IMG/VR virus record: IMGVR_UViG_2923307698_000006
Strand: one strand, 5' to 3'
Source of the DNA: a virus
Taxonomy: Duplodnaviria; Heunggongvirae; Uroviricota; Caudoviricetes
DNA length: 48,288 bases
Made by a program: the position numbers. Positions within the stretch are counted from its first letter, which is position 1. Each line of letters opens with the position of its first letter. Shown piece after piece: positions 30,001 to 33,000 of this stretch.

Positions 30001-33000
30001 AAATCAGATATGGAGTGGGCTGTAGTCCGGAAGCCTGAATGACACACGGGGACTACAGCCCAAGAAATGAAAAAAGGCCACGCAGTTGCGCAGCCTGATA
30101 AACCCTGGTTAAAATCCACACGATAACAACACAACAATATCAGTATCTCATGCTATTGCCCGAACCCATTCGGGCATTTTTTTACCCATAAAAAAGCCCC
30201 TCCGGAGAGGGGCATGTTTGCATGCACATTCTTTTTCTTGCATGGTGCCGGGTGCCTCCCGGTGAATTCAGTATCAGCACCTGAATCCGCGATTACCCCA
30301 TATTCCTTCTTGCTGATTGCCCCACCGCACAGGGGGATTCACCATGCAGAAGTGTTTTTAATAAACAGCAAACAAAAAAATCAAGCATTATGCAGGCTGT
30401 TTCTTTTTATCACCGGCCACAGCAATACCACAATGCCGCAGACCAGCACTCCATCCGCCAGCACCGACATGATCCTGCTGGTGAAATCCACCATCACCAC
30501 TAGAAACAGCAGGAGTGCCACAGCGGCCAGACGCAGTTTTACCGTCACAGGTGGTTCTCCAGTCGCAGGCCAAGAACACCAGCAATCTCTTCCAGAACCT
30601 TACGCTCTTCCGGCTCAATTTCACCATCTGCTTCAGCAATGGCCACCGCCACATCCAGCACATCTTCCGCTTCACGCGTATCGTGTTTCACATCTTCAAT
30701 TTCACGCAACGCTGCACGACGACCAATTTTAAAATTGGTGTCAAGCTGACCTGTGATCGTGGCACTGATGGCATTAATTTCTGACGTAAATGCGGACAAT
30801 GCTGGCTGGTTACGTAATACCTGTTCGATCTTCGCTTTCTCTGAAGTCTCACATTCACCATCTGCATAGGCCACCAGGTAGGCAGCATTAATAACCGCCT
30901 GTGCCAGATCGCGTTTCTCAAACTTTTTAATTTCAGTTGCTGCTCTGCGGGTTTTCTTTTTGAAAATACCAAACATCGTGACTTTTCCTTTTAGTGGGTG
31001 AGCCTGCGCCCGGGGGTGACCAGCCCACAGAGAAAGTCACACTGACCATCCCGTAAGCTCACCCCTGAAAGGCTCTGTGGTTTTTGATGTACGCCGGGCG
31101 TGGCGCGGAAATAAAAAAAAGGTCCGCCAAAGCGAACCTTAAAGATCAGAGAGGGATATTTTTTATTGATGAACAAAATTCAGCCAACCATAAGGTTAAC
31201 TACAAAACAACATGCAAATACACGCTACCTACAACGGCAAGCAGATAAGAAAAATGCAATCGCTACGAAAACCAAACTCAGGATTAATCAGCCAACTGAT
31301 TTGGTCGGCAGTTGTAAATCTCAGCCAGTTTTTCCAGTGTTGATTTTCGCGGAGCTCCTGCTCTCTCAAACTGAGATACGGCTGACTGTTTAACCCCCAG
31401 GCGCTCCGCCACTTCCTGTTGAGTCATTCGCCTGTAAATCCGCCATGCTGCCAACAATGACACATCATCATCAATCATGATGGATACTACTTCATGAGGT
31501 ATTGTTTCATTGTCATTCTCTCCGGCTTCATACTGGATGCTTTCAAAATCATCATCAGGATCTGCCAGACTTAACAGCCGTTCATATTCAGCAACTGACA
31601 TAATGACCCCGGTTCTAACACCGGCATTATCAGTAATAAACTGGACACTGTTTTTCATATCATTGCCTTTCGCGATTGAATGTCGTTCAGCAAACTGGCG
31701 GTCTCCCGCCAGCCTCCCTTAGTATGTGGTTGTGCTTCTGCGCTTAATTTCCTTAATATCCAGGACAACAGGATCACCATCCTCAACATCAAAAATAACC
31801 CTGTACACGCCGACCCTCAAACGGAATCGATTGTCACTCCCTGATAGCTTTTTAAAATCCATGGCTACCAGAGGAAAATCCTTTAGCGCACCGACCTTAT
31901 CCTTTATCGCCTGCCGATACCGCGTATCCACACGAAGTAACTGCTTCAGGGCTGTCCTTGTCCATCGAACCTCAATCATTATCCCCCCCTCTGATTCGTG
32001 AGAAAACATGATTATTTTCGAGAACAACTTTACACCCCATACTTATATATTGCAACAAGACTTATGAAAAAATAAGCATTAATTAATCAATCAACAGCTT
32101 TACACGTCAGAATTTCTCTTATCTCGCTCACCGTCTGCTCAAACCGTTCAGCCTCAAGCTCAAAACGCCTATTGCCCGACGACCAAGCGAAAGCGCGGCT
32201 TTTATCGTGGAACCTGACCCCATAAAAAAGTCGGCAACCAAATCACCCGGACGACTGCTGGCCTCTATTATCTGACGCAACATATCTGCCGGTTTTTCAC
32301 AGGGGTGTTTGCCCGGATAATACTGTACAGGCTTATACATCCAGACATCCGTATACGGAACAGCAGCCGATACAGAAAAATAACGCCGCAAAGATTTGTA
32401 CTCCTCCAGCAGGCTGGCATATTGCCGGTTAAGTTCACTGTATGTGCTGACCAGCTGGTGGTGTGGCTTTTCCAGTTCCCCGCGTTGATGTTTTTCTGCT
32501 GCAACACGCGCAAACAACGCCTGCAGTTTTCTGTAATCATCCTCGTTCGGTAACTGCCACTGGCGGGCACCAAACCAGTGCGACACCATGTTTTTCTTTC
32601 CGGTGGCTTCCGCTATCTGTTTCGACGTTATCCCCAGTGATTCACGCGCATCACGAAAGTAAGAAATCAGCGGAGACATCACATGCTGTTTAAGCTCGCG
32701 CTCCTTTGCCGCATAGCCGCCATTTTTTGGCTGGTATGGCCCCTGATAATGTTCAGCAAACAGAATACGCTCTGTGGCGGGAAAATACGCCCGCAGGCTT
32801 TCCTTACTGCACCCGTTCCAGCGTCCGGACGGCTTCGCCCAGATGATATGGTTCAGCACGTTAAAGCGTTCGCGCATCATGATTTCGATATCAGATGCCA
32901 GGCGATGACCACAGAACAGGTAAAGACTTCCGGCAGGCTTCAGTAACCGCCAGAACTGCGCCAGACACTGGTCCAGCCATTTCAGGTAATCATCGTCGCC

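Follow-up and report, generated by a model that had tools for sequence, protein, structure and literature searches.

The closest described relatives of the locus considered here are the tciA and tciB genes of phage P1 (terB and upf69.4 in P7), where a gene for a ~141-143-aa TerB-family protein is directly succeeded by one for a ~54-aa DUF3927 protein, the stop codon of the first overlapping the start codon of the second. These P1 names were assigned "by homology". The P1 pair is accompanied by a third small gene, tciC, and belongs to the C1-controlled ban operon, where it lies among tRNA genes, with the C1-repressed Pban promoter on one side and ban on the other. All three P1 genes are non-essential by CRISPRi knock-down (PMC10695390), and the literature searched yielded no experiments on TciA or TciB.

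Another relative is the TerB protein of K. pneumoniae (PDB 2JXU), encoded within the terZABCDE(F) operon, to which tellurite-resistance, phage-inhibition and colicin-resistance phenotypes are ascribed. According to later papers, TerB is a reported interaction partner of the membrane protein TerC (Turkovicova, 2016, cited in PMC11003894) and is itself reported to be membrane-associated (Alekhina, 2011, cited in bioRxiv 10.1101/2022.05.11.491447). TerB domains are likewise found together with membrane-associated components in Shango (SngABC), Bunzi and Dionysus (DinABC), for which membrane surveillance has been proposed. Shango combines the TerB protein SngA with the helicase SngB and the ATPase SngC; the Bunzi TerB protein has its own transmembrane (TM) helices; and Dionysus consists of DinA (MAEBL plus TM), the TerB-like DinB and DinC, a four-TM pore-forming toxin. 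Finally, DjlA and DUF533/YebE-type proteins hold a TerB-like domain at the inner membrane by means of a TM anchor fused to it, to which DjlA adds a J-domain.

In the window (the whole 48,288-nt stretch of phage DNA that was analysed), the TerB-family and DUF3927 genes at 30381-30976 on the minus strand are tciA-tciB, the name first used in phage P1 (Table 1). The same pair is annotated as tciA/tciB in P1, JLK-2012, Pollock, FSL SP-058 and Fostie, and it is already catalogued, both genes being covered by Pfam, PHROGs and PGAP. Thus, the minimal or different arrangement suggested by the sequence-only reading is not a new one, and the absence of the 55-aa ORF from the ORF track on which that reading relied is an effect of a length cut-off only, since public records do carry an annotation for it. 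Compared with their P1 counterparts, TciA is 41% and TciB 48-58% identical, whereas tciC has no homologue in the window and is absent also from most other tciAB loci. A 31-aa ORF at 30293-30388, which overlaps the tciB stop codon, was rejected as a tciC candidate: the initiator Met is the sole residue invariant with respect to P1 TciC, and the ORF lies inside the STnc100 RNA gene. In contrast to the P1 pair, the pair in the window belongs to a lambdoid prophage, where it occupies the late region from Q to holin.

Table 1. Features of the tciAB locus, in window positions
Feature	Position	Strand	Description
STnc100 sRNA gene	30184..30376	-	Rfam RF02076, 142.5 bits, full length
tciB	30381..30548	-	55-aa ORF, GTG start; DUF3927 small membrane protein
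Coupling junction	30545..30560	-	GGAG Shine-Dalgarno 30560-30557, 8-nt spacer, GTGA 30548-30545
tciA	30545..30976	-	143-aa ATG ORF; single-domain TerB-family protein
Upstream hairpin and ~140-nt leader	30977..31140	-	leader accompanies tciAB in other phages
Upstream terminator-like hairpin (plus T-tract)	31140-31119	-	terminator scan

The TerB assignment of the 143-aa protein, already proposed from its two motifs, is borne out by profile and structure comparisons. TciA matches Pfam TerB (PF05099) with 60.9 bits (E = 1.8e-16; gathering score, the membership cut-off, 24.4 bits), residues 26-138 corresponding to profile positions 2-109 of 118, and PHROG 632 end to end (E = 1.7e-69). The motifs are of the ADG...E type, ADGECETSEKAKIEQVL at residues 37-54 and ADGEIEPEERKVLEEIA at residues 116-132, and many Asp and Glu residues are invariant in the alignment. 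K. pneumoniae TerB shares the Pfam family of TciA, is similar in length and aligns nearly end to end (phmmer against 2JXU, E = 9e-8 over residues 14-137). The AF2 model (pLDDT 86.8) is all-helical, with seven helices, and its top Foldseek match in the PDB, with no other significant match, is 2H5N (prob 1.0, TM-score 0.55-0.65), which we take to be a TerB-family structure. Scores for the membrane-anchored TerB-like families are weak and stay far below threshold (29 against 162 bits for NCBIfam DjlA; 25 against a cut-off of 29.6 bits for Pfam DUF533), and, unlike in those fused proteins, the TerB-like and membrane parts are here two separate coupled genes. The N-terminus of TciA is polybasic (MFGIFKKKTRR). 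The "TciA/TerB-like protein" of phage PPyecE_EH1910 has the very sequence of TciA (100% identity), and 130 phage records contain a full-length TerB gene of the TciA-like type. H77, a "DUF3927 domain-containing protein" that matches the TciA N-terminus, was set aside because it is a wrongly annotated piece of a pseudogene, surrounded by IS elements.

TciB matches Pfam DUF3927 (PF13064) with 60.3 bits (E = 1.7e-16; gathering score, the membership cut-off, 25 bits), residues 6-51 corresponding to profile positions 5-50 of 53, and the "TciB-like" PHROG 1470 over positions 1-54 of 54 (E = 2.7e-29). Hydropathy delimits two hydrophobic segments (residues ~5-20 and ~26-47) separated by DFTSR, with a dip at residues 17-25; the DFTS(R/K) motif between the segments and a DG within the second are conserved, and K/R residues are found at both ends of the protein. 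The two-helix membrane peptide of the sequence-only reading is thus retained as regards its hydrophobic segments, whereas a hairpin is not confirmed: AF2 models residues 2-54 as one continuous helix (pLDDT 89.9), so that only hydropathy and the distribution of charges speak for a hairpin. Conserved Asp residues of TciB are lacking in the homologues of jumbo phages and hence cannot be essential everywhere. The family comprises 133 representatives at 50% identity, nearly all of them stand-alone proteins of ~50-60 aa. TciB showed no match to holin families in Pfam or PHROGs or to a pore-forming-toxin family in Pfam, and it was rejected as a TerC relative, Pfam at E <= 1 returning only DUF3927 and a chance match to LMP1.

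The overlap between the stop codon of the 143-aa ORF and the GTG of the 55-aa ORF is as originally described: the plus strand reads tcac at 30545-30548, hence GTGA on the minus strand, in which the tciA TGA stop and the tciB GTG start overlap by 4 nt. This coupling is kept in 97 of the 102 loci fetched, where the TerB stop lies 0-8 nt from the TciB start in a junction of the GTGA, ATGA, TGATG or TAAATG type. The tciB reading frame remains open and in register in diverged loci, and selection on it is frame-specific, with a pN/pS of 0.34 in frame versus 0.92 and 1.89 in the shifted frames and a protein identity of 48-70% across phages whose synonymous sites are saturated. For tciA, comparison with the Franconibacter and Pantoea copies gives a pN/pS of ~0.08 (pS ~0.65-0.7). 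Judged by these sequence comparisons, tciB is a genuine conserved gene and not a chance ORF, as the sequence-only reading had anticipated. The few apparent fusions of TerB to DUF3927 in databases were discarded as a sign of interaction, since none is natural: frameshift read-through explains P0125, P0186, P0290 and P0303, and chimeric proteins whose N-terminal part is unrelated account for P0249 and P0299.

The pair is real, conserved and common among E. coli prophages: of 5426 complete E. coli genomes, 1144 (about a fifth) carry it in their PGAP annotation, and the median number of matching places in a genome is 4. Beyond lambdoid phages it is present in P1-like, N4-like and jumbo phages, including strictly virulent N4-like and jumbo members, and purifying selection maintains it whether the phage is temperate, a plasmid prophage, N4-like or jumbo. 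In 33 of 93 prophage-type copies tciA is interrupted, which is consistent with a lack of selection in resident or cryptic prophages, whereas tciB is intact where tciA is broken; since phage 434 also has TciB without TciA, TciB may act alone. In a survey of TerB neighbours in 15 hand-picked phages besides the lambdoid ones, made without statistical control, a DUF3927-type TciB was found directly 3' of TerB in eight (P1, P7, Pollock, FSL SP-058, ChrisDB, pSal-SNUABM-04, LIET2 and phiK7B1). In the same survey, TerB is coupled to an unrelated one-TM protein in the Pseudomonas phages AF, Zuri and Lana, its stop is overlapped by a hydrophobic 51-aa ORF in Paracoccus Pyei1, and a TerC/Alx-family membrane protein lies directly upstream of it in two Vibrio phages; PMBT3 and K481 have no membrane-protein neighbour of these kinds beside TerB. 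This recurrent adjacency to TciB, to another small membrane protein or to TerC suggests a membrane-tethered TerB unit in lytic growth.

In the window, tciAB is flanked by a ParE/HTH toxin-antitoxin pair, an orphan DNA methylase, Q, sRNAs and a sialate esterase. Specifically, it lies inside the Q-dependent late operon of a lambdoid prophage, with Q (33729-34550) on one side and holin and endolysin on the other, the window having a complete lysis cassette of its own. Homology with phages Evi and JLK-2012 stops at positions 31135 and 31139, respectively. The leader has a folding energy of -51.9 kcal/mol (z = -1.9 only), an Rfam scan of it returned no family and nothing near threshold, neither an Mn riboswitch nor another known RNA element, and no tRNA gene was found anywhere in the window; a riboswitch or tRNA remnant in the leader was accordingly rejected. 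STnc100 begins 5 nt past the tciB stop, and among 19 diverse loci it comes after tciB in 6; the sRNA may have a transcript of its own or be part of that of tciAB. The pair had been placed between two terminators and tentatively considered its own transcription unit. Both terminators are real, although the downstream one (30213-30196, minus strand) is the 3' end of STnc100. A separate unit is unsupported, since a promoter scan found no sigma-70 promoter between the upstream terminator and tciA and the pair lies within the late operon; nevertheless, given the abundant expression of STnc100 in EHEC cultures, a lysogen-active promoter may exist near the tciAB/STnc100 locus. The position of the pair between Q and holin makes late transcription by Q-dependent read-through of the flanking terminators most likely, so that in this prophage tciAB is most likely expressed in lytic growth and not in the lysogen. 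This timing agrees also with the C1-repressed setting of the P1 pair, with the presence of the pair in strictly virulent phages and with the interrupted tciA of many prophage copies. In Shiga-toxin phages, stx is inserted at this very site of the late operon, so that co-expression of tciAB with the lysis genes is expected on induction.

The reading that we favor, at a probability of roughly 0.55, is that tciAB is a late-expressed phage accessory module in which a TerB unit tethered by TciB at the inner membrane conditions or protects the membrane of the infected cell. TciA would be a soluble, all-helical protein of TerB fold with a hydrophobic and polybasic N-terminal tail, and TciB an inner-membrane protein of ~50 aa, most likely folded as a hairpin whose two ends are cytoplasmic. 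Ribosomes that end tciA would restart at the overlapping GTG, so that the two proteins would be produced together, with TciB probably serving as the membrane partner or tether of TciA. TciA-TciB could thereby amount to a pared-down version of the TerB-TerC couple of tellurite-resistance operons, located at the inner membrane on its cytoplasmic side. Unlike in those operons, the membrane neighbour is here a 55-aa protein unrelated to TerC, and none of terZ, terA, terC, terD and terE is found among the neighbouring ORFs. The weakest step is the role itself. Since ter operons are associated with phage inhibition and colicin resistance, an analogous protection by tciAB could be directed against superinfecting phage, against colicins that form pores or against depolarisation that comes too early; tellurite resistance as such is probably not the role of tciAB.

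It is possible, although we consider it unlikely, that tciAB is instead an anti-phage defence of the prophage, in which a TerB sensor for membrane surveillance (TciA) and a small pore-forming effector (TciB) would be transcribed in the lysogen from a promoter of their own, aborting infection by other phages or excluding it. The occurrence of TerB domains in Shango, Bunzi and Dionysus, the last of which joins a TerB-like protein to a membrane pore-former, and the phage inhibition conferred by ter operons speak for such a role, as do the terminators on both sides, the defence-like neighbours (the orphan methylase and the ParE/HTH pair) and the adjoining STnc100, which is abundantly expressed in EHEC cultures (PMC5331693). 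However, the likeness to those systems is partial. No helicase or ATPase ORF lies beside tciAB, in agreement with the sequence-only reading, TciA lacks the TM helices of the Bunzi TerB protein, and, judged by the description of Dionysus, the pair differs in having only two genes, with neither a MAEBL protein nor a four-TM pore-forming toxin, TciB having two hydrophobic segments. Unlike these systems, the pair is carried by phages, virulent ones included. PADLOC matched a defence model to neither protein, with only a weak PDC-S48 signal for TciA (E = 0.0028) and nothing for TciB, and the assignment to a defence system was rejected on that ground. Further points against it are the missing promoter upstream of tciA, the presence of tciAB in strictly virulent phages and, in P1, in a ban operon under C1 repression, and the interruption of tciA in one third of prophage copies. 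Additionally, TciB stays intact without TciA, contrary to what would be expected of a toxin that needs TciA to restrain it.

A broader proposal, which we hold to be less probable still, is that phage TerB with an interchangeable membrane partner (TciB/DUF3927, the one-TM family or TerC) constitutes a widespread, lifestyle-independent inner-membrane module that acts as a decoy or antagonist of host immunity by TerB-based membrane surveillance or in superinfection exclusion. As a decoy, its targets would be Shango, Bunzi, Dionysus and the phage-inhibition phenotype of ter operons.

A role in metal-ion handling appears improbable. In such a role, the conserved acidic residues of TciA would serve to bind divalent cations and TciB would replace TerC/Alx, the two tuning Mn, Zn or Ca for phage enzymes. 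The many invariant Asp and Glu residues of TciA fit this proposal, as does the pairing of a homologous TerB in Vibrio phages with the TerC/Alx-family protein, described as a "metal homeostasis membrane protein", and a study of K. pneumoniae reports a contribution of terC to zinc resistance (PMC12054061). It is opposed by the lack of detectable similarity between TciB and TerC, by the absence of the membrane Asp residues from jumbo-phage homologues and by a leader in which Rfam recognizes no Mn riboswitch or other known element.

Very doubtful, in turn, is a lysis-timing accessory, with TciB as a holin- or antiholin-like protein acting with the downstream holin and TciA as its cytoplasmic regulator. 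The small size of TciB, its two hydrophobic segments and charged ends, and the lambdoid location of tciAB in the late operon just upstream of holin and endolysin would suit such a function. Against it, the pairs of P1, N4-like and jumbo phages lie away from lysis genes, among early, replication or tRNA genes, the lysis cassette of the window is already complete, and TciB has no match among the holin families of Pfam or PHROGs. Finally, the view that only the TerB gene is real and the 55-aa ORF a chance overlapping frame, to which its shortness, GTG start and length under common ORF cut-offs could lend color, is refuted by the conservation data, namely the DUF3927 score above the curated cut-off, the frame-specific selection on a diverged protein, the retained junction and the many, mostly stand-alone family members.

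TerB domains have recently been found in several anti-phage systems. A TerB-plus-anchor unit of only two genes, as tciAB is under the favored reading, would be the simplest available system in which to study how TerB functions at the membrane.

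The sequence-only reading described a TerB-like protein translationally coupled to a candidate membrane peptide, and the span it delimited is exactly that of two ORFs, tciA and tciB. At their junction the minus strand reads CTGGAGAACCACCTGTGA, so the GTG start of tciB and the TGA stop of tciA overlap by 4 nt, and a GGAG Shine-Dalgarno sequence lies 8 nt 5' of this GTG. The 143-aa protein is a TerB-family member: it scores 60.9 bits against Pfam TerB (cut-off 24.4), has an end-to-end match in PHROG 632 ('tellurite resistance'; E = 1.7e-69), and its residues 14-137 align with the K. 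pneumoniae TerB structure 2JXU (E = 9e-8). Its AlphaFold2 model, based on 29 homologues, is confident overall and all-helical (pLDDT 86.8; N-terminal 20 residues of low confidence), and its sole meaningful Foldseek match in the PDB is 2H5N (probability 1.0, TM 0.55-0.65). That the 55-aa protein is an unknown peptide is ruled out by its matches to Pfam DUF3927 (60.3 bits, cut-off 25) and PHROG 1470 ('TciB-like', E = 2.7e-29).

Features of the tciAB region and of related phage loci (L-numbers denote collected loci, in their own coordinates)
Feature	Position	Strand	Remarks
DUF968 protein, then RusA		-	start of the minus-strand order; Q follows
Antiterminator Q	33729-34550	-	
N6/N4 DNA methylase	32128-33153	-	341 aa; PADLOC MTase_II, 490 bits
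ParE/RelE-like toxin	31719-32027	-	102 aa; Pfam ParE_toxin
HTH antitoxin	31284-31658	-	124 aa
Upstream terminator	31140-31119	-	
tciA	30545-30976	-	143 aa, ATG start; ORF listing
tciB	30381-30548	-	55 aa, GTG start; ORF listing
31-aa ORF	30293-30388	-	ATG start
STnc100 sRNA	30184-30376	-	3' of tciB; Rfam 142.5 bits
AgvB (anti-GcvB sRNA)	30121-30182	+	96.5 bits
Sialate O-acetylesterase	28123-29973	-	
Holin	27615-27821	-	
Endolysin	26682-27215	-	
sok antitoxin RNA	36581-36755	-	Rfam match; hok/sok-type locus
DicF	43160-43211	+	Rfam match
STnc490	14259-14382	-	Rfam match
Pseudomonas one-TM proteins	L106:1632-1853, L107:1643-1846, L114:1338-1553		motif C.WYGYQT(E/D)R...VGCMV...W.P...E.R
Phage terC-terB pair, TerC/Alx part	L111:1-797, L112:1-795		
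Phage 434 TciB locus	L003:4058-5045		
Pollock group I intron	L005:3055-3407		Rfam 101 bits; ~450 nt 3' of tciAB

Across 102 loci gathered from annotated phages, 80 IMG/VR contigs and 14 species-representative Enterobacterales genomes, the TerB ORF ends 0-8 nt from the TciB start in 97, through a GTGA junction in E. coli lambdoid prophages, TAAATG in N4-like phages and ATGA or TGATG elsewhere. TciB of P1, N4-like and lambdoid phages is 48-70% identical to that of the window, and K4, D21, F22, D32, G33, P45 and K48 are invariant in this comparison. The median pN/pS of tciB is 0.34 (codons 4-48, 152 pairs), against 0.92 and 1.89 for the same nucleotides in the shifted frames; constraint on TciA is stronger still (pN/pS ~0.08 in comparisons with the copies from Franconibacter and Pantoea, where pS is ~0.65-0.7). 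When 1.84 billion representative proteins were searched with a profile, only 133 DUF3927 members came back, almost all stand-alone proteins of ~50-60 aa; the few longer ones, like two TerB+DUF3927 'fusions', proved to be frameshifted or chimeric gene calls. The original observation is thus correct, the small ORF being conserved and the 143-aa protein scoring as TerB in a profile search.

In TciB, hydropathy picks out two stretches, at about residues 5-20 and 26-47, with DFTSR between them; together with the K/R residues at both termini, this is compatible with a hairpin whose two ends are cytoplasmic, but AlphaFold2 models a single continuous helix (residues 2-54, pLDDT 89.9). A two-helix form of TciB is likely.

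A full-length TerB gene of the TciA type is present in 130 phage records, which come from phages of Vibrio, Erwinia, Pseudomonas, Klebsiella, Salmonella, Escherichia and Paracoccus, and TerB neighbours were sampled in 15 phages other than lambdoid ones. A DUF3927-type TciB lies directly 3' in eight (P1, P7, Pollock, FSL SP-058, ChrisDB, pSal-SNUABM-04, LIET2 and phiK7B1). In three Pseudomonas phages (AF, Zuri and Lana) the same position is held by a different conserved one-TM protein; in AF and Lana its ORF overlaps the stop of TerB, in Zuri it starts 4 nt past this stop, and in Paracoccus Pyei1 a hydrophobic 51-aa ORF overlaps the TerB stop. The two sampled Vibrio N4-like phages, vB_VpaP-MS02 and BUCT194, carry a TerC/Alx-family membrane protein immediately 5' of TerB; the remaining two of the 15, PMBT3 and K481, show no such membrane neighbour. 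TerB has been reported as a partner of the membrane protein TerC (as cited in PMC11003894) and as membrane-associated (as cited in bioRxiv 10.1101/2022.05.11.491447). Most simply, phage TerB would act together with a membrane partner, a role that TciB would fill in enterobacterial phages.

Loci departing from this linkage look like decay. TciB abuts the methylase directly in two (L098, L101), of which one has an internal stop, and in phage 434 a TTG-start TciB is preceded not by TerB but by an unrelated 247-aa polytopic membrane protein that has no Pfam match; a 62-aa membrane protein lies 3' of this TciB. Additionally, tciA is interrupted in 33 of 93 prophage-type loci (IMG/VR E. coli prophage contigs, L014-L088), with the TerB match starting only at position 47 in 30 of these 33 copies; in L014, the example inspected, a stop codon stands at this position. 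TciB is intact and identical in the loci with interrupted tciA, and PHROG 3920 (48 aa) apparently represents the C-terminal piece of tciA genes broken in this way.

The pair occupies the site 3' of PR' that holds stx2 in phage Sp5, where convergent sRNA genes have been reported (PMC4104026); in the window STnc100 and AgvB converge tail to tail just 3' of tciB. The claim that the pair forms its own transcription unit is unsupported: a promoter scan of the minus strand from the upstream terminator to tciA found none, and the supposed downstream terminator is that of STnc100. The tciA leader contains no known RNA element. STnc100 could be transcribed on its own or derive from the 3' end of the tciAB mRNA, an ambiguity arising because it starts 5 nt past the tciB stop and a CATAAT -10-like hexamer lies within the 3' end of tciB (30392-30387). 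The 31-aa ORF that overlaps the tciB stop (ATGCTTGA) lies inside STnc100 and shows no relationship to P1 TciC; high ribosome coverage has been reported on some EHEC STnc100 copies (PMC5331693). STnc100 lies 3' of tciB in 6 of 19 diverse loci. Homology to Evi and JLK-2012 extends over ~30240-31139, from within STnc100 to the upstream terminator, and then ends; therefore, terminator, leader, tciAB and part of STnc100 move as one block. Upstream, the toxin-antitoxin pair (31284-32027), which is toxin-first, lies in the late operon between tciA and a methylase without an adjoining restriction enzyme. In a number of unrelated phages tciAB is bordered by tRNA genes (P1, P7, JLK-2012, the jumbo phages ChrisDB and pSal-SNUABM-04, and phiK7B1; loci L004, L109, L002, L103, L115, L108); the window contains none.

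P1 carries tciAB between ban and its C1-repressed promoter Pban, and N4-like and jumbo phages have the pair in regions of early, replication or tRNA genes; together with the window context, these arrangements point to expression during lytic growth. The pair might instead be a defence system expressed in the lysogen, as TerB is present in Shango, Bunzi and Dionysus, but PADLOC models match neither protein, virulent phages carry the pair as well, and prophage copies of tciA are often broken. Metal handling and lysis timing are further rival roles. The favoured role, and the weakest step, is that tciAB would protect or condition the inner membrane, or exclude competitors, by analogy with ter-operon phenotypes (phage inhibition and resistance to pore-forming colicins).

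The names tciA and tciB, which originate in the P1 annotation on the basis of homology only, are applied to both genes in JLK-2012, P1, Pollock, FSL SP-058 and Fostie. Phage PPyecE_EH1910, 98.7% identical to this stretch, annotates a 'TciA/TerB-like protein' and a hypothetical protein, and RefSeq labels the pair 'tellurite resistance TerB family protein' and 'DUF3927 family protein'. The pair is matched in 1144 of 5426 complete E. coli genomes, at a median of 4 places per genome, and at least 80% of it is covered in 802. In a P1 CRISPRi screen tciA, tciB and tciC were non-essential (PMC10695390), and the literature searched yielded no functional study of TciA or TciB. What the sequence-only reading picked out is a very common pair of phage genes, long annotated and placed at a standard insertion site; the remaining interest lies in the function of its two products and in the recurrent pattern of TerB plus an exchangeable membrane partner.
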